Below, piece by piece: positions 36,326 through 43,206 of a stretch of DNA of 64,000 nt (within the stretch, counting starts at the first letter, position 1; every line of letters begins with the position of its first letter). The notes under the pieces are model-generated. The model was not told where the DNA came from and ran no database searches. It worked only from the letters and a program-made list of their open reading frames with translations. The translations under genes and the position numbers were made by a program. Origin of the DNA: Parvibaculaceae bacterium (GTDB lineage: Bacteria > Pseudomonadota > Alphaproteobacteria > RS24 > CBDDDD01); NCBI GenBank assembly GCA_965226465.1, contig OZ245362.1, positions 571,258 to 635,257 of the forward strand. Reading direction: 5' to 3'.

Positions 36326-36889
36326 TTATTCTGCATTCTCAAGATAATAGAATATTCCGCTTTCTCCATCGGAACGCAAAGCAAGGGTTCCTTTTAAAGT
36401 AATCGGGTCATATGAAAATTTTATAGGTTTTTTAGCGAATATCTCAATCAACTGAACAGGCCCTACATAATAGTGAAATGGGCAGCTTAACGGATATGGA
36501 CCAATGAGAAAGTTTTTTTGTTTTTCTGATTGCTCTAAAGGAAACATATACCCCATTAAGGTAACCTCTTTTCCATCTAAGTTTTTAACATCATCACTAT
36601 ATTCAGCTGTGATAATACAGTGGTCAAAACCTTCTTCATTTTTTTTGCAATCCTCTGTTACCATTGTTTTAGAAAACACATCCCAAGGAATAGCATCACC
36701 TTTTACCTCAATTGGTTCCCAATAGTTCCTAGAAGCCTTACTATGAGCTTGTGACATCTCCTCAAAAGTGAAAGCATCTGCTCTCTCTAAAAAAAGGAAT
36801 GGAAGCAAAAATAAGAACCATAAGAAAAATTTATTCTGATATTTTTTCTGCATTGTTAAGGCTGTAAACCATCCCTGTTTCTTTTTCAT
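36326..36889 (-). CDS. DUF3299-type exported protein, last gene of the znuA-ABC operon
   Basis: It has an N-terminal signal/anchor. The C-terminal part reads VTLMGYMFPLEQSEKQKNFLIGPYPLSCPFHYYVGPVQLIEIF, which I recognise as the DUF3299 pattern usually found beside FtsX-type ABC transporters. Confidence 0.5.
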   Translation of the reverse strand: MKKKQGWFTALTMQKKYQNKFFLWFLFLLPFLFLERADAFTFEEMSQAHSKASRNYWEPIEVKGDAIPWDVFSKTMVTEDCKKNEEGFDHCIITAEYSDDVKNLDGKEVTLMGYMFPLEQSEKQKNFLIGPYPLSCPFHYYVGPVQLIEIFAKKPIKFSYDPITLKGTLALRSDGESGIFYYLENAE

Positions 36890-36927
36890 CTCTGGTAAGT
36901 AATAACATTTTTATGCCCACCTCAAGC

Positions 36928-38112
36928 TTAAACATGTGTCAGCGTATTCCATATATCAGTTTTATATGCCTCCCATGCGGGTATCAGGCAAGCCAGCAAT
37001 GAAAGCAGCAGGACTATGCCCCATACTATCCAAACCGCTGGAAGAAAAAATAATCCTTCCAATCCCATTTCCATCCCTTTTTCAGTGAACATCCCAATAG
37101 CTTCCATAAGACCGTGCCCAAGCAACAAGCCAGCAATGCTACCAATAAGAACAATGGTCATGCCTTCCATAATGACAAGAAGCAGAATTTTCTTTCTGGA
37201 TGCTCCCAGCGTACGGAAAATAGCAAGATCATAGCGGCGGGAGCGAATATTGTTCAGTAGCCCAATAAAAACTCCGGCCAGCGATACAGCAATTAGAAAT
37301 CCACTAAACATCATCATGCTATCAGTTCCTATGCCAACCAGGTCAACTAGTCGCGCCATTTCAAAGGCTGGACTTGCCGCCTGCATGGATGTCTGCTGAT
37401 TAATCTGGCGCGGGAAAGAAAATGCTGCTGCCCGATTTCGATAACTCACCAGCAAAGCCGTGACTTCACGCTTGGAACTATCCTCGCTATGCTTTTCTTC
37501 TGCATGTAGCCTCCACACGCTATCCAATGAGGTGACGATGAGGCGGTCCAATACCGTGCCTGTGGGCTTCAACACACCAACTACCCGATAGGGATTATCA
37601 CCATGGCCATGCCCTCCTGAAACCAGACCATGCACGCCTACAAAACTATTACCGACCTTAATACCGGTTTGCTGAGCGACTTTAGCCCCAACCACCGCCT
37701 GCATGCTTTTATTCCAGATATTGCCATCTGCAAATTCAGCTTTGAAATGTTTCAAATAGGAAGGCTCGGTGCCGACAATTCGAAACCGTTGATAATTATC
37801 ACCCAAAGAAATAGGAATAGCCTGTCGGATATATCGGTGGTTTTTGATACGCTCAGCTTCTGAAAGCAGGATATTACCAGTTGGAATATCCATATGCTGA
37901 ATGCTGGAAAGAATCAGTTGTAATGGGCTACCTTTTGCCCCAACCACCAAATCAATTCCGGCACCATCACGATATAACCGCTCCTTCGCCTGATGGCTGA
38001 AGAGTAAAAGCACAGTTATCATCATGACGCCTAGCAACATTAATATGATATGCAATAAGCTGTTTGACCATTTGGAACGTAAATATGCCAGTGCAAGGGA
38101 AAAGAGGTTCAT
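36928..38112 (-). CDS. ABC transporter permease, FtsX/MacB-LolE type
   Basis: 394 aa with an N-terminal TM helix, a roughly 230-aa periplasmic domain and three C-terminal TM helices (the FtsX topology). The start overlaps the ATPase stop (ATGA). Confidence 0.8.
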   Translation of the reverse strand: MNLFSLALAYLRSKWSNSLLHIILMLLGVMMITVLLLFSHQAKERLYRDGAGIDLVVGAKGSPLQLILSSIQHMDIPTGNILLSEAERIKNHRYIRQAIPISLGDNYQRFRIVGTEPSYLKHFKAEFADGNIWNKSMQAVVGAKVAQQTGIKVGNSFVGVHGLVSGGHGHGDNPYRVVGVLKPTGTVLDRLIVTSLDSVWRLHAEEKHSEDSSKREVTALLVSYRNRAAAFSFPRQINQQTSMQAASPAFEMARLVDLVGIGTDSMMMFSGFLIAVSLAGVFIGLLNNIRSRRYDLAIFRTLGASRKKILLLVIMEGMTIVLIGSIAGLLLGHGLMEAIGMFTEKGMEMGLEGLFFLPAVWIVWGIVLLLSLLACLIPAWEAYKTDIWNTLTHV

Positions 38113-38753
38113 GGTGTACCTCCCAGCATCAATATATGCTGCTTATCAAAAAATGAAGTAACCCGTTTATCATGGGTGACTACCACTAAAGACGCTTTGC
38201 AACGGCTAGCTTCTTCCTCCAGCAAGTTCAGCATAGCCTTAGCATTGTCATCATCCAGTGCGGAGGTAGGCTCGTCACATAAAATCCATTTTGGGTTGCC
38301 TATCACAGCGCGTGCTACAGCAAGGCGCTGCGCTTCTCCCACGCTTAACTGTGCTACATTCTGGTGTGACTTGTCCGCAAGCCCCAACCGGTTCAGTACA
38401 TTATAGATACGGGATTCATCAACAGGCTTTCCCGGCAAGCTTTGCGCCAATAGAAGGTTCTGCCTAACCGTTAAAATTTTGACCAGATGAAAGGTCTGGA
38501 AGAGAATACCCAATTGCTCACCACGAAAATAATCGCGTTCAGTTTCACTGAGACTATACAGCACCTTATCATCATAGCATATTGTGCCTATATCTGGCTT
38601 TTTCAGACCGGCCAATATAGAAAGCAATGTTGTTTTCCCACAACCCGAGGCACCAAGTACTAGCAGATGTTGTTTGGGCTTAAGTGTGAAGTCAATATTA
38701 TCTAGAACACAGCTTCCTTCAATTGTGATAGATATCTTTTTGCATTGTAACAT
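38109..38753 (-). CDS. ABC transporter ATP-binding protein (MacB/LolD-like)
   Basis: Walker A GASGCGKTT, signature LSVGEAQR and Walker B ILCDEPTSALD are present. Confidence 0.85.
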   Translation of the reverse strand: MLQCKKISITIEGSCVLDNIDFTLKPKQHLLVLGASGCGKTTLLSILAGLKKPDIGTICYDDKVLYSLSETERDYFRGEQLGILFQTFHLVKILTVRQNLLLAQSLPGKPVDESRIYNVLNRLGLADKSHQNVAQLSVGEAQRLAVARAVIGNPKWILCDEPTSALDDDNAKAMLNLLEEEASRCKASLVVVTHDKRVTSFFDKQHILMLGGTP

Positions 38754-38757
38754 TTCA

Positions 38758-39723
38758 CTATTCTAAGCATTTTTTAAGATTTTTTGCCAGGTTACGGAGC
38801 AAGTTTATATATAATTCAGGGCCATTTTCTAACCCTACTCCTAACGGGTCAAGTATACCGCTCTTGGCATTGCTTCCTTCTATAACCGTATTCACGAGGC
38901 GGTCAGAAAACTGAGGCTCTCTAAAAACACATTGAGCACCTGTTTGCTGCAATTTGGCACGCATTTCCCTTATGCGGTTTGGTGAAGGGGATTCATCCGG
39001 CTCAAAAGTGATGGAGCCAACACCATTGAGGGCGTAAGCGCGCTCAAAATATTGATAGGCATCATGAAATACGATAAAGGGCTTATCCTGCAGGCTGGCA
39101 AGTGATGTTTTTAACTCTCTATCCAGCATATTTATTTTCTTAATATATTTCCGTGCATTTGCTTTGTAAGTGTTACGGTTTTCGGGATAGATAGCACTTA
39201 GCTCTTTGGTGATGGATTTAATAATCCTGCGTGCATTTTTCAGGTCAAGCCAAACATGCATATCATGATGTCCATGGTCATGATGTTTTTCCTCATGAGC
39301 ATGGCTATCATGACCATCCCCCTCTTCCATCTTATCTTCATGTACCTCATGTTCGTCCCATGTTTTACCTTCCCGATGGGCAAGCACAGTCAATCCTGCC
39401 TTTTGTGCTACTGCAAATTTTCTTATATGCTTTGGCAGATTTTCAAACACACTATGCAGAAATGTTTCAAAACTATCATCAATGTAGAAAATCACATTTG
39501 CTTTCTGCATTGCTCTTACCTGTGAGGGCTTTAATTGGAAATCATGCGGAGAAGTATTGCCTCTCAACAATAATTTTGCTTCTCCCGTATCACCAATAAC
39601 TGCACTAACCAGTGAATGTAACGGTTTGATAGTAACAACAACACCCTTGGTTTCTTTAGCCGATACATGAGCGGATAAGAATAAGGACAATATAAATATG
39701 GATATAATAATTCTTATTTTCAT
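38758..39723 (-). CDS. znuA: Zinc ABC transporter periplasmic binding protein ZnuA (cluster A-I) with a His-rich loop
   Basis: It has a signal peptide, a TroA-like fold (VVVTIKPLHSLV, PHDFQLKP) and a long acidic/His loop HEVHEDKMEEGDGHDSHAHEEKHHDHGHHDMH. It is divergent from zur-znuCB. Confidence 0.85.
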   Translation of the reverse strand: MKIRIIISIFILSLFLSAHVSAKETKGVVVTIKPLHSLVSAVIGDTGEAKLLLRGNTSPHDFQLKPSQVRAMQKANVIFYIDDSFETFLHSVFENLPKHIRKFAVAQKAGLTVLAHREGKTWDEHEVHEDKMEEGDGHDSHAHEEKHHDHGHHDMHVWLDLKNARRIIKSITKELSAIYPENRNTYKANARKYIKKINMLDRELKTSLASLQDKPFIVFHDAYQYFERAYALNGVGSITFEPDESPSPNRIREMRAKLQQTGAQCVFREPQFSDRLVNTVIEGSNAKSGILDPLGVGLENGPELYINLLRNLAKNLKKCLE

Positions 39724-39757: not shown

Positions 39758-39774
39758 ATGTTATAGTATAACAT
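39758..39774. promoter_or_regulatory. Zur box (perfect 8-N-8 palindrome ATGTTATA-G-TATAACAT) in the znuA / zur-znuCB divergent promoter region
   Basis: Read directly from the sequence as ATGTTATAGTATAACAT. It lies between the znuA start (39723) and the zur start (39804). It matches the ATGTTATA-N-TATAACAT core reported for proteobacterial Zur operators. Confidence 0.75.
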
Positions 39775-39803
39775 TTATTAGTCAATCTATTTATGAGGCA
39801 ATC

Positions 39804-40268
39804 ATGCATCTATGTATTAACCATAACTCCTGCATTGACGAAGCAGTGCATAAAGCAGAAATGATCTGTCAGGATAAAGGCTTGCGTTTTACGGAATTGC
39901 GCCAGAAAATATTGAAAATGATTTGGGAAAATCACAGACCCGCAAAAGCCTATGATATCCTTGATAAGTTAAAAAAAGGCAGATATTCAGCAAAGCCCCC
40001 TACCGTCTATCGCACACTGGATTTTCTCCTGGAGCACGGATTGGTACATAAGTTAGCCAGCCTTAATGCTTATATAGGGTGCTCCCATCCTTTAAAACAT
40101 AATGAATGTTATTTTCTGATTTGTAGGAAATGCGGTGAGATTAGCGAATGTTGCAATAGTAAACTGGCAGAGGCTATTATTGGTATAACCAATAGAAATA
40201 AATTTCGTTCCAAACACATCACCCTGGAAATTGAAGGGGAATGTCAGGGATGCATTAAAAAGAAATAG
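39804..40268 (+). CDS. zur: Zinc uptake regulator (Fur family)
   Basis: It has a Fur-family winged helix (RFTELRQKILKMIWENHRPAKAYDILDKL, TVYRTLDFLLEHGLVHK) and two Cys pairs (CRKCGEISEC, CQGC). The ATG at 39804 is preferred because the track start at 39726 would place the Zur box inside the ORF. Confidence 0.8.
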   Translation: MHLCINHNSCIDEAVHKAEMICQDKGLRFTELRQKILKMIWENHRPAKAYDILDKLKKGRYSAKPPTVYRTLDFLLEHGLVHKLASLNAYIGCSHPLKHNECYFLICRKCGEISECCNSKLAEAIIGITNRNKFRSKHITLEIEGECQGCIKKK

Positions 40269-40271
40269 ACC

Positions 40272-41000
40272 ATGAACGAATTAATTGCTGCAGAAAACGT
40301 AACCGTCATTTGTCAGGGAAAGCATATTCTTAAAGATGTTTCCGCAGTAATTGGCATGCGTGATTTTATCACCGTAATCGGTCCAAACGGAGCGGGTAAA
40401 TCCATGCTCTTGAAATGCCTGATGGGATTTTATCCTCCGGATAGCGGTAGAATTACCCGAAAGAAAGGGCTGAAGATAGGCTATGTGCCACAAAATCTTT
40501 CGCTGGATTATACCATGCCACTTAACGTGAAGCGTTTTCTGACGCTTCGTAAAAAAGTTGATAAATTTTCTGTACAAAAAATAGCCGAAGAAACCAATAT
40601 TGAAGAAGTTTTAATGAAGCCTCTTACCGTACTTTCTGGCGGCGAATTACAGAGGGTATTACTGGCACGCAGTCTGCTGAATAATCCGGAACTATTAATA
40701 TTGGATGAGCCTGCACAAAATCTAGATATATCCGGACAGCTAGGTTTTTATAAATTACTGGAACATATTTATAATGAACGCAATTTAAGCATATTGATGG
40801 TGTCCCATGATCTGCATATGGTCATGGCCTCAAGCAAGCAGGTAATCTGCCTTTTTCATCACATATGTTGTTCCGGCGAGCCACAAGCGGTGACCAAAGA
40901 CCCGGAGTTCATCTCGCTTTTCGGCCAAGACATGGCACGCATGATGTCGGTATATCAACATAGCCACAATCACACACATAAGCGAGGGGATGATGTTTGA
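40272..41000 (+). CDS. znuC: Zinc ABC transporter ATP-binding protein
   Basis: Walker A GPNGAGKS, signature LSGGELQR and Walker B LILDEPAQNLD are present. The C-terminal tail is His-rich (HSHNHTHKRGDD). Confidence 0.85.
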   Translation: MNELIAAENVTVICQGKHILKDVSAVIGMRDFITVIGPNGAGKSMLLKCLMGFYPPDSGRITRKKGLKIGYVPQNLSLDYTMPLNVKRFLTLRKKVDKFSVQKIAEETNIEEVLMKPLTVLSGGELQRVLLARSLLNNPELLILDEPAQNLDISGQLGFYKLLEHIYNERNLSILMVSHDLHMVMASSKQVICLFHHICCSGEPQAVTKDPEFISLFGQDMARMMSVYQHSHNHTHKRGDDV

Positions 41001-41790
41001 TCCATTTATTACACGTGCTTTAATTGCCGGCATTGGTGTTTCGCTCATTGCCGGCGTTATCGGATGTTTTGTGGTTTGGCGGCGCATGGCCTATTTTGGT
41101 GACTCATTGGCACATAGTGCATTATTAGGCATTGCACTTGGACTTGCCGCAGGATTTAGTACTAATTTGGGTGTGGTAATAGTCTGTTCCACATTTGCTG
41201 CCTTGCTTCTCTGGCTACAGCAGAAAAAAGTTTTGGCTACCGACACACTGCTTGGTATTCTAGCACATGCAGCATTATCCATAGGTATGGTAACAATAAG
41301 CGTATTGAACCAGCGTATAGATCTGTATTCCTATTTATTCGGTGATATTCTCACCGTAACTCCGACTGAGTTGTGGTGGATTTATGCTGGAGGTGCCATT
41401 GTATTGGTTACACTTTTACTGAACTGGTCTTCTTTGGTACTGATGACGGTGCATGAAGATTTGGCAAGAGCAGAAGGTGTAAAAGTGTTTTTTACCCATT
41501 TAATGTTGATGTTTCTGATGACTATTGTGGTAGCGGTTTCTATCCGCATTGTTGGCATATTGCTGATAACATCCATGCTTATTATCCCTGCGGCTACGGC
41601 ACGACAATTGGTACGCTCTCCTGAGGCTATGGCTGTTGTCTCATCAATCTTGGGGATAGCAGCCGTTATAATCGGTATTTATGGCTCTATTAAGCTGGAT
41701 ACCCCCTCCGGACCTTCCATCGTTGCAGCGGCGGCGATAATTTTTGCAATACTCTTCTCCCTTTCAACGCTCCTATTACGAAAAAAATAA
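40990..41790 (+). CDS. znuB: Zinc ABC transporter permease
   Basis: 266-aa polytopic ABC-3 family protein (YFGDSLAHSALLGIALG). It overlaps znuC by 11 nt. Confidence 0.85.
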   Translation: MMFDPFITRALIAGIGVSLIAGVIGCFVVWRRMAYFGDSLAHSALLGIALGLAAGFSTNLGVVIVCSTFAALLLWLQQKKVLATDTLLGILAHAALSIGMVTISVLNQRIDLYSYLFGDILTVTPTELWWIYAGGAIVLVTLLLNWSSLVLMTVHEDLARAEGVKVFFTHLMLMFLMTIVVAVSIRIVGILLITSMLIIPAATARQLVRSPEAMAVVSSILGIAAVIIGIYGSIKLDTPSGPSIVAAAAIIFAILFSLSTLLLRKK

Positions 41791-41835: not shown

Positions 41836-41852
41836 ATGTTATATTATAACGT
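41836..41852. promoter_or_regulatory. Second Zur-box-like operator (ATGTTATA-T-TATAACGT, one mismatch to the perfect palindrome)
   Basis: Read directly from the sequence. It ends 39 nt upstream of the ATG at 41892 and shares 15 of 17 positions with the box at 39758-39774. Confidence 0.55.
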
Positions 41853-41891: not shown

Positions 41892-43052
41892 ATGAAAAAC
41901 AGGCTATTCACAAAATTGCTATTAAGTATTGTAGCTATTCTAGTTGCATCACCAATCTTTGCAGCAGACGGTCATGACCACGCAGCTCATGCTGGAGACA
42001 AACCATTTTACGGTCATCTTGATATTCGCATTCATAGTAATAGCATTATTGATGCTGAGGAAGAGGACGAAAAATTTAATGAAACCTATTCTCATTCACA
42101 TCTTGAACTGGGCGTACAATTTAATAATGGGTTCTCCATTAATTCCAATATCAAACTGGAAGGCGAGCCAAGCGGACATGACCATGGGCATGGCGAAGGT
42201 GAGGGGGAGAGTGAAGCTGGAGGAGATCGTTTCCTTGAAGACCACCCTCTTTTCATTTCGGAACTGACCTTGAATTATGACGGTGATTATTTTTCTTCCT
42301 ATATTGGAAAGTTTAATCCTGCTGTTGGGCTTGATTATCATATTTTCCCCGGTATTTTCGGCTATCACATTATTGAGGAATATGCCATTCGTGAACGAGT
42401 TGGTTTTGGTGTCGCTGCCAAGCATAATGCCGGTGATTATGGTACACATAGGCTTGAAGTAAGCACATTCTTTGCGGATACCACCCCATTAAGCAATTCC
42501 CTTATCTATCAGCGTGGTCATACCAGCGAAAAGGATGGAGGTCTTTCAAACACGGAAGACTTTTTCTCCTCTTTTGCAATCTCATTGAGCGGTCATGATT
42601 TCTATTCTTTGAATAATAATATTGTTGAGGGACTTTTCTACCGTTTGGGCTATGCCAAACAAGAGGCAGGTACTGGAAATGAGGATAATGAAACACGCTA
42701 TTCCTTTTCACTGGGATATGAGCAGAAAATTACACAAGATATCAATATGACACTGGTAGCAGAGCATATGGACATCACCCATCTTGGCGGTGAAGAAGCA
42801 CATGACCGTGCATATAGCACCTTAGCATTACGTTTAGACTACCAAAAATGGAACCTTGGCGCTTCCTATACCAATATTAAAAACGAGGCTGAAGAAGAAG
42901 ATGAAAACCATGATGGAAGCATTTTACAAATTTCTATCGGCTATAATTTTGACAACGGCATTGCTCTTGGCCTTGGCTATCAAAGCGCAGATCAAGAAAA
43001 CGAAGTCACAGACACCATCGGCGCCCTATTAAGCTATAGCTATGCGTTTTGA
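41892..43052 (+). CDS. Outer-membrane beta-barrel (porin-like) protein with His-rich segments, putatively Zur-regulated
   Basis: It has a signal peptide (ASPIFA-ADG). The mature N-terminus is ADGHDHAAHAGDKPFYGH, and a second His/acidic tract reads EPSGHDHGHGEGEGESEAGGD. Amphipathic alternation is pervasive and the C-terminal beta-signal is LLSYSYAF. There is no plug domain and it is too short for a TonB-dependent receptor. Confidence 0.6.
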   Translation: MKNRLFTKLLLSIVAILVASPIFAADGHDHAAHAGDKPFYGHLDIRIHSNSIIDAEEEDEKFNETYSHSHLELGVQFNNGFSINSNIKLEGEPSGHDHGHGEGEGESEAGGDRFLEDHPLFISELTLNYDGDYFSSYIGKFNPAVGLDYHIFPGIFGYHIIEEYAIRERVGFGVAAKHNAGDYGTHRLEVSTFFADTTPLSNSLIYQRGHTSEKDGGLSNTEDFFSSFAISLSGHDFYSLNNNIVEGLFYRLGYAKQEAGTGNEDNETRYSFSLGYEQKITQDINMTLVAEHMDITHLGGEEAHDRAYSTLALRLDYQKWNLGASYTNIKNEAEEEDENHDGSILQISIGYNFDNGIALGLGYQSADQENEVTDTIGALLSYSYAF

Positions 43053-43115: not shown

Positions 43116-43206
43116 TGGCGGAGAGGAAGGGATTCGAACCCTCGATACGCGATGAACGTATACTCCCTTAGCAGGGGAGCGCCTTCAGCCACTCGGCCAC
43201 CTCTCC
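43116..43206 (-). tRNA. tRNA-Ser (anticodon GCU), CCA encoded
   Basis: The reverse complement reads GGAGAGGTGGCCGAGTGGCTGAAGGCGCTCCCCTGCTAAGGGAGTATACGTTCATCGCGTATCGAGGGTTCGAATCCCTTCCTCTCCGCCA. It has a 7-bp acceptor stem, an anticodon loop CU-GCU-AA, a long variable arm hairpin and a GGTTCGAATCC T-loop. Confidence 0.92.

Follow-up and report, generated by a model that had tools for sequence, protein, structure and literature searches.

The znuA operon of the window

The window analysed here is a stretch of 64,000 nucleotides (nt) from the genome of a Parvibaculaceae bacterium (Alphaproteobacteria; assembly GCA_965226465.1, contig OZ245362.1, positions 571,258 to 635,257), and its subject is a minus-strand gene cluster in which znuA, the gene for the binding protein of the ZnuABC zinc transporter, is followed by genes for an ATP-binding cassette (ABC) transporter of another class. 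Open reading frames (ORFs) were taken from a six-frame list and from direct reading of the sequence, and domains were assigned by Pfam and NCBIfam scans. The leading gene, znuA (38758–39723; 239 bits against the Pfam model of ZnuA and 233.6 bits against that of NCBIfam), is succeeded by an ABC ATPase of the MacB/LolD/FtsE type (38109–38753; ABC_tran 112 bits), a permease with FtsX and MacB_PCD domains (36928–38112; 61 and 43.8 bits) and a DUF3299 protein of 187 residues (36326–36889; 33.5 bits against a cut-off of 22). The ATPase and the permease are homologues of ZrgC/PA4064 and ZrgB/PA4065, respectively, and the DUF3299 protein resembles ZrgE/PA4066. Only 4 nt (38754–38757) separate the znuA stop from the ATPase start, the permease ATG overlaps the ATPase TGA as ATGA (38109–38112), and a gap of 38 nt (36890–36927) precedes the DUF3299 gene.

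The canonical partners of ZnuA are encoded on the plus strand behind zur (39804–40268; NCBIfam Zur 110 bits), namely znuC (40272–41000; NCBIfam ZnuC 280 bits) and znuB (40990–41790; ABC-3 233 bits). ZnuABC is complete in the window, with a cluster A-I binding protein, an ABC-3 permease, an ATPase and a Zur box; the NCBIfam scores of ZnuA, ZnuB and ZnuC lie slightly under the curated equivalog cut-offs, and ZnuA carries a His-rich loop with 11 His in 40 residues. An initial annotation of this DNA had described the gene order and spacings behind the Zur box, a MacB/FtsX-type transporter with a DUF3299 protein, and znuC and znuB on the opposite strand behind zur. All its coordinates were reproduced from the ORF list and the sequence, and the Pfam and NCBIfam scores bear out the identities of the proteins, the transporter being a split one of type VII. 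The ORF list places the start of zur at a TTG (39726) that abuts znuA; the plausible start is the ATG at 39804 (MHLCINH...), with which an 80-nt divergent control region remains between the two genes.

This region holds a perfect 15-nt palindrome, TGTTAT-N3-ATAACA (TGTTATAGTATAACA; 39759–39773), a Zur box common to both divergent promoters. The perfect palindrome occurs once in the window, and sites with at most one mismatch occur twice, against 0.26 expected from shuffles. The box spans the spacer and the −10 element of a minus-strand promoter-like site of znuA (39758–39785), made up of a −35 TTGACT (39785–39780), a 16-nt spacer and a −10 TAACAT (39763–39758). This site matches the consensus at 9 of 12 positions, and such sites are no commoner in the region than in shuffles; the promoter-like and terminator-like scans of the region were at chance level and are not used as evidence.

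The permease aligns over its full length (residues 1–392) with PA4065 of Pseudomonas aeruginosa at 27% identity (blastp, E 1.6e-44), and likewise over the full length with a Phaeobacter permease (E 3e-51), and the ATPase is 37% identical to PA4064 (blastp, E 9e-40). The nearest NCBIfam models of the ATPase are LolD, FtsE, DevA and a bacteriocin-export ATPase. The AlphaFold2 model of the permease (predicted local distance difference test, pLDDT, 87) has four membrane helices (residues 15–50, 248–291, 306–342 and 358–383), the first two of which are separated by a large periplasmic domain of the Porter/Sabre type. Foldseek gives MacB (5gko) as the top match (E 1e-16, TM-score 0.63), and LolCDE (LolE at about E 1e-16), HrtBA, YbbAP, BceAB and FtsEX are also matched. 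The operon consists of znuA, the ATPase, the permease and the DUF3299 gene only, without a gene for a MacA/HlyD adaptor, and no further gene is conserved with them in the 67 related loci surveyed below.

The AlphaFold model of the DUF3299 protein (pLDDT 86) matches best, among Protein Data Bank structures searched with Foldseek, 4hsp, which is PA4066, and after that generic oligonucleotide/oligosaccharide-binding (OB) folds. Compared as a single sequence it is distant from PA4066 (E 0.006), and a profile of 27 DUF3299 relatives matches 4hsp at E 2.3e-7. It bears a signal peptide, whose cleavage we place, by our own reading of the sequence, after ...ERADA. Two mostly conserved cysteines, C81 and C91, may form a disulfide. 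The initial annotation had proposed modelling this protein and inspecting the Cys and His of its SCPFHYY segment (residues 135–141). In addition to the OB fold, that inspection found Cys136 invariant in the 27 sequences, in the motif GPYPLSCPFHY, and His139 and His141 variable: the segment reads HYY here, HYH in most sequences and EYH in Rickettsiaceae-like ones, and PA4066 has C-x-H. DUF3299 is the sole periplasmic protein that is encoded with every version of the module. Two tandem DUF3299 paralogues are present in many operons without znuA (L004, L005, L010, L020, L033, L058, L071), and in the five closest lineages the upstream copy and the window's protein share just 26–32% identity.

The initial annotation had also likened the cluster to PA4063–PA4066. 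The likeness holds as homology to PA4064–PA4066 and fails as identity of the gene set, for the DUF2796 protein (PA4063; ZrgA in Vibrio) is missing. Searches with tblastn from PA4063 and a Phaeobacter DUF2796 protein, two seeds that detect each other at 1e-23 to 1e-28, found no DUF2796 in the window, in 70 related loci or in six loci added later, and Pfam scans of unassigned upstream ORFs found none. ZnuA stands in the place of ZrgA/PA4063, the canonical first gene. A plasmid collection yielded a copy of PA4063–66 (L072) and a Phaeobacter operon of the order Fur-DUF2796-ATPase-FtsX-DUF3299 (L074).

Related loci, the permease loop and a candidate metal site

Related loci were retrieved from species-representative genomes by a pattern built on the DUF3299 alignment, and annotated by blastp against the window's proteins. 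Among the 67 loci obtained, 65 bear alphaproteobacterial or unplaced Pseudomonadota names; the lineages include SAR116/Puniceispirillales, Ca. Levibacter, Rickettsiales-like metagenome-assembled genomes (MAGs), Micavibrio and others. The order znuA-ATPase-FtsX-DUF3299 is found in 33 loci and the same genes, rearranged, in a 34th (L028), so that znuA accompanies the module in 34/67; metagenomic look-ups added two further ZnuA-linked operons (L080, L081), bringing the related loci to 36. The gap between znuA and the ATPase gene ranges from −4 to +9 nt in the 33 loci where it can be measured, and this tight spacing is kept across about 40% divergence of the ZnuA sequence. Had the adjacency been unique to this genome, the reading of the initial annotation would by its own criterion have been refuted; it is not unique, and its gaps are conserved. 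In all of these loci whose contig extends far enough upstream, znuC-znuB are divergent from znuA, and in many of them zur is in between; L081 also has divergent znuCB. The closest relative, L001/L006 (GCA_030425825), has the whole island, including the outer-membrane protein gene described below. In L080 (2053–8221), the order is feoA-feoB, a small ORF, a Zur box, znuA-ATPase-FtsX, a 162-residue DUF3299-like protein and DUF3299; no znuBC was found within 6 kb, and in this locus ZnuA is tied to the MacB-type module alone.

The other half of the survey loci have ATPase-FtsX-DUF3299 without znuA, and in most of these zur adjoins the triad, either divergent, directly upstream or directly downstream. 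The same palindrome as in the window precedes the first gene of the operon, be it znuA, the ATPase gene or zur, in nearly all 67 loci. The link to zinc that had been drawn from the Zur box holds, with a perfect palindrome over the znuA −10 element that is kept across related loci. From the spacing, the operator and their conservation, we infer that the four genes of the window give one zinc-repressed transcript.

A difference between the operons with znuA and most of those without it lies within the permease. In the alignment, a variable periplasmic insertion stands between the motifs SVWxxH and EVTALL (residues 203–216 of the window's protein). In operons without znuA it usually comprises 20–75 residues of His, Asp and Glu, for example HGDHDHHDHQKESHDHVHHDHHDHDTHDHGHKTHDDHAHHNHAH..., with a median of 11 and a maximum of 33 His, whereas in the window and in all 33 ZnuA loci of the genome survey it is 9–16 residues long with 1–2 His (Mann-Whitney p = 2.5e-13 for the loop His, uncorrected for phylogeny). 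The two extra metagenomic ZnuA-linked permeases have 2 and 4 loop His, and three ZrgA-linked permeases (PA4065, Phaeobacter, Catenovulum) have 1–2. The His-rich loop is missing, then, in 36/36 ZnuA-linked and 3/3 ZrgA-linked operons, and every operon-linked ZnuA protein has 11–16 His per 40 residues. This distribution suggests a role for ZnuA as the provider of the histidine-rich zinc "antenna", which in relatives without ZnuA is part of the pump.

A neighbour-joining tree of the permeases, from which the loop columns had been dropped by gap filtering, places the window and L001 as sister to L004/L005, which have the His-rich loop and no ZnuA (bootstrap 99.7%, and 77% after taxa were added). 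ZnuA-linked operons were monophyletic in 0/300 bootstrap replicates, and SAR116 forms a separate clade; with L080 and L081 included, four ZnuA-linked lineages are interspersed among His-loop lineages. The His-rich loop looks ancestral, since deeper ZnuA-less clades carry it too.

The periplasmic domain also offers a place where the metal might be bound. Among 18 family members that range from PA4065 to the window's permease, H161, D189 and H203 never vary and H170 is kept in 16; in an independent alignment of 30 metagenomic relatives (46–77% identity) all four are invariant, as are D54, D75 and D105. At the same positions, E. coli LolC, LolE and MacB have V/I/I (H161), P/P/- (H170), G/H/G (D189) and M/L/M (H203). 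Between H161 and H170 runs a flexible loop that often contains His (HGLVSGGHGHGD in the window; pLDDT under 50 at residues 164–166), and H203 is the exact point at which the His-rich insertion begins. The four membrane helices contain no His, Cys or Asp at 85% conservation, and their sole conserved charged residue, E316, is common to MacB. H161, H170, D189 and H203 are for these reasons of conservation and position put forward as a family-specific candidate zinc site on the periplasmic domain.

Several other features of the window and of the related loci may be recorded here. The second Zur box of the window, with one mismatch (41837–41851), lies upstream of a plus-strand gene for a His-rich porin-like outer-membrane protein of 386 residues (41892–43052; Porin_4 30 bits), with the His-rich segments AADGHDHAAHAGD and SGHDHGHGEGEGE. 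Box and gene are conserved in L001/L006, where L001 has a 65% identical orthologue in the same position, and were not found in the SAR116 loci. This protein probably belongs to the same zinc regulon, as its outer-membrane component, and may be a zinc-regulated entry route across the outer membrane. A Zur-like site with two mismatches in the gap between the permease and DUF3299 genes (36893–36907; TGGTAAGTAATAACA) was set aside as a probable chance match, because sites as good as this turn up about every 4.5 kb in the loci and the closest relative has not conserved it. An Rfam scan of the window matched only a tRNA gene (43119–43206, minus strand), and no riboswitch or known small RNA in the operon.

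Beside the ZnuA-less triads stand other zinc-regulon genes, including those for COG0523/CobW GTPases, FolE and HisI. The genes for COG0523/CobW-type GTPases, which are putative zinc metallochaperones, adjoin triads in L007 (4735–5961; order zur-cobW-ATPase-FtsX-DUF3299), L010 (2649–3848), L066 (6434–7681) and L068 (4596–5831), most of the four near Zur boxes. MerC-domain genes lie beside the module in Catenovulum (L073, 1857–2340 and 3256) and Polymorphobacter (L071, 3542–4009). In Catenovulum the MerC-like gene and the ATPase gene are each preceded by a perfect Zur box, and the MerC-like protein may be a separate inner-membrane zinc channel that works with the module. The permease has at least 7,965 relatives at E ≤ 1e-10, and members of its subfamily occur outside Proteobacteria at 34–46% identity: on plasmid MP1 of Deinococcus radiodurans (L075, 2773–5080), with a DUF3299-like gene upstream, and in a Bacteroidota MAG (L078), with a TonB-dependent receptor gene nearby. 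Going by the Zrg literature, one would expect a far narrower permease family.

A model of zinc capture and its rivals

In Vibrio and Pseudomonas, few genes are induced by zinc limitation as strongly as those of the Zrg/PA4063-66 systems, which in V. cholerae also contribute to virulence. Opinion in the field is split between import of zinc and export of a metallophore by these systems, and the roles of ZrgA and ZrgE are disputed as well. What does such a machine do when zinc is scarce, and why is znuA at the head of its operon? We propose that znuA-zrgC-zrgB-zrgE is a Zur-repressed zinc-scavenging operon, a ZrgA-less variant of the Zrg/PA4063-66 family in which ZnuA would be an exchangeable antenna, and to this proposal, drawn from comparison of sequences, we give an even chance.

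The model would run as follows. When zinc is plentiful, zinc-loaded Zur would sit on the single palindrome over the znuA −10 element and silence the operon together with the divergent zur-znuCB; under zinc scarcity, the operon would be transcribed as a single polycistronic mRNA. The ATPase and the four-helix permease would form a type VII machine that handles Zn2+ at the periplasmic His3-Asp cluster (H161, H170, D189, H203), to which an evolutionarily exchangeable His-rich antenna would feed the metal. In most operons without a binding protein this antenna would be the poly-His/Asp/Glu loop of 20–75 residues in the permease, in Vibrio, Pseudomonas and Phaeobacter it would be ZrgA (DUF2796), and in the window it would be ZnuA, which would serve two mechanistically different ABC systems. 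DUF3299, with its invariant free Cys next to a His, is probably a metal acceptor or an adaptor that docks on the periplasmic domain. The broader claim contained in this model, that a type VII ABC machine truly handles zinc, which it accepts from a built-in loop, ZrgA or ZnuA as interchangeable His-rich donors, and that ZnuA serves two mechanistically unrelated ABC transporters, is more tentative, and we regard it as rather more doubtful than assured.

As for the direction of transport, we lean slightly towards an ATP-driven hand-off within the periplasm, by mechanotransmission as when LolCDE loads LolA, with the membrane being crossed through ZnuBC. This leaning comes from the lack of a conserved membrane-embedded ligand set and of any known type VII importer. 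Alternatively, zinc would be translocated through the MacB-type membrane domain itself. True import is conceivable because Zrg supports growth of V. cholerae without ZnuA (PMC9820375), and because L080 and minimal Rickettsiales-like operons have no znuBC nearby.

A number of points weigh against the antenna model. To our knowledge, no type VII ABC transporter handles free metal ions. The anticorrelation between loop and ZnuA rests on few independent transitions (2–4), and the deep nodes of the tree are weakly supported (0.35–0.56). Some ZnuA-less permeases are also without the loop, namely the L056/58/60/65 group and those of Polymorphobacter and Deinococcus. When a short loop was used as a predictor of an upstream ZnuA in three newly chosen cases, the prediction held in one (L081); the short-loop loci L082 and L083 have no ZnuA, and a cut ORF upstream in L082 is not ZnuA. 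Because of these loop-less permeases and the two failed predictions, the rule is one-way only: where ZnuA or ZrgA is present, there is no loop. Within the 3' end of znuA lies another 9/12 promoter-like site (38852–38824), a possible internal promoter. Of the published results, deletion of ZrgE had no phenotype in V. cholerae (PMC9820375), PA4066 was reported to be without an evident zinc site (PMC11481552), and PA4064/65, in models a MacB-type exporter, were in 2024 tied to the export of pyochelin-cobalt (PMC11481552).

The position of znuA might instead be a matter of shared regulation. An autonomous zinc-acquisition module of MacB type with DUF3299 would then merely use the znuA promoter, and ZnuA would feed ZnuBC only. 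In about half of the loci the triad adjoins zur without a binding-protein gene, so the module is workable without a ZnuA in its operon; some loop-less permeases have no ZnuA; and znuCB is directly adjacent in most ZnuA-linked loci. Such hitch-hiking, however, leaves unexplained why the loop is absent from the 36 ZnuA-linked and 3 ZrgA-linked operons when the nearest ZnuA-less relatives have it, and in L080 znuA heads a MacB-type operon with no znuBC within 6 kb. We consider it unlikely, albeit deserving of serious attention.

Export is the other direction in which the fold points, since MacB and LolCDE are known exporters or extractors, and the membrane helices have no conserved metal-ligand residues. 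During zinc starvation, the module would in this case rid the cell of a metallophore, alone or with its metal, or of excess cobalt, and leave zinc itself untouched, and PA4065 of P. aeruginosa has indeed been tied to pyochelin and cobalt levels (PMC11481552). Yet no gene for a MacA-like adaptor, for TolC or for metallophore synthesis is present in any conserved cluster, the partner genes are those of ZnuA, COG0523 proteins and Zur, and the periplasmic loops with 10–33 His and the invariant His3-Asp set point to direct contact with the metal. The Zrg system also supports growth of V. cholerae under zinc limitation (PMC9820375). The export model from Pseudomonas is hard to reconcile with the poly-His loops, the partner genes and the missing adaptor and metallophore genes, and we take export to be improbable for this family. 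Still less probable, and indeed far-fetched, is an envelope regulator in which ATP hydrolysis would activate or remodel a periplasmic enzyme during zinc starvation, as in FtsEX-EnvC, with DUF3299 as the adaptor: FtsEX-type machines work in this manner and are among the fold matches, and Zur regulons can hold cell-wall hydrolases (PMC6381278), but no hydrolase gene is conserved beside the module, and the His-rich loops and the linkage to ZnuA or ZrgA would be left unexplained.

If the antenna model is true, it would be the first case of mechanotransmission acting on a free metal ion, and the dispute over import or export by ZrgABCDE/PA4063-66 would be settled in favour of direct handling of zinc. 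That ZrgA would be replaceable by ZnuA or by a His-rich loop of the permease argues that the role of ZrgA is to capture zinc for the permease. The family-specific periplasmic His3-Asp set gives a concrete candidate metal site, and DUF3299 is the sole universal partner. The ZnuA-linked variant is also widespread, being found in SAR116 and in uncultured Rickettsiales-like lineages.

Comparison with known zinc systems

In Vibrio, the ZrgABCDE operon (vc2551-2555 in V. cholerae, VP_RS01455-01475 in V. parahaemolyticus) is under the control of Zur, and zinc limitation raises its expression 75- to 205-fold; in a znuA deletion background, growth in zinc-poor medium depends on ZrgA (PMC9817125, PMC9820375). 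Genetics in V. cholerae link ZrgABC to zinc acquisition (PMC9820375). In P. aeruginosa, PA4063 is a low-affinity zinc-binding protein and PA4066 (4hsp) an OB-fold protein with no assigned role (PMC8561739, PMC11481552). The initial annotation had described the Pseudomonas operon as lacking a defined mechanism; this is overtaken by the published genetics of zinc acquisition by Zrg and by the proposal of pyochelin-cobalt export, and it stands insofar as the mechanism is disputed. SAR116 bacteria are ubiquitous in ocean surface waters, and a survey of their pangenome with standard transporter annotation records just znuABC (PMC12262181). In the literature searched we found no mention of the substitution of ZnuA for ZrgA, of the spread of the system in SAR116, of the complementarity with the His-rich loop or of the family-specific His3-Asp set.

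With canonical ZnuABC, the window shares znuA, znuC and znuB, all present, typical and under one Zur box; the difference, judged by gene order, is that znuA is joined to another class of ABC transporter and not to znuBC. The permease has the four helices and the large periplasmic domain of type VII systems (MacAB-TolC, LolCDE, FtsEX, HrtBA, BceAB, YbbAP), but differs from them in having no adaptor or outer-membrane partner gene, in its His3-Asp set, in the poly-His loop of many members and in its DUF3299 partner. A precedent for hand-off of zinc in the periplasm is AztABCD, a zinc ABC system whose binding protein, AztC, receives its zinc from AztD, a periplasmic chaperone. Its permease, AztB, is of the classical importer kind and AztD is a beta-propeller, without homology to the MacB-type module or to DUF3299. 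The Zur-regulated znuGHI genes of Caulobacter were considered as relatives and rejected, being of ABC-2 type and unrelated.

The closest counterparts are the systems of Pseudomonas and Vibrio. PA4063–PA4066 have the homologous ATPase, permease and DUF3299 protein, an upstream Zur box and the residues H161, H170, D189 and H203; what differs is that a PA4063 homologue is absent from the window, and that export of pyochelin-cobalt has no visible basis in the clusters examined. Like ZrgABCDE, the operon of the window is predicted to be regulated by Zur, encodes its ATPase (ZrgC) apart from the four-helix MacB-like permease (ZrgB), includes a DUF3299 gene (ZrgE), and would form a second zinc system beside ZnuABC. 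Unlike ZrgABCDE, it has neither ZrgA (DUF2796) nor ZrgD (DUF2607), and ZnuA is its first gene; its permease belongs to a distinct subfamily, about 27–28% identical to three ZrgA-type permeases, with an extra HxDxPTGN motif. The system as first described is a member of a published family, and the arrangement with ZnuA in place of ZrgA is the difference.

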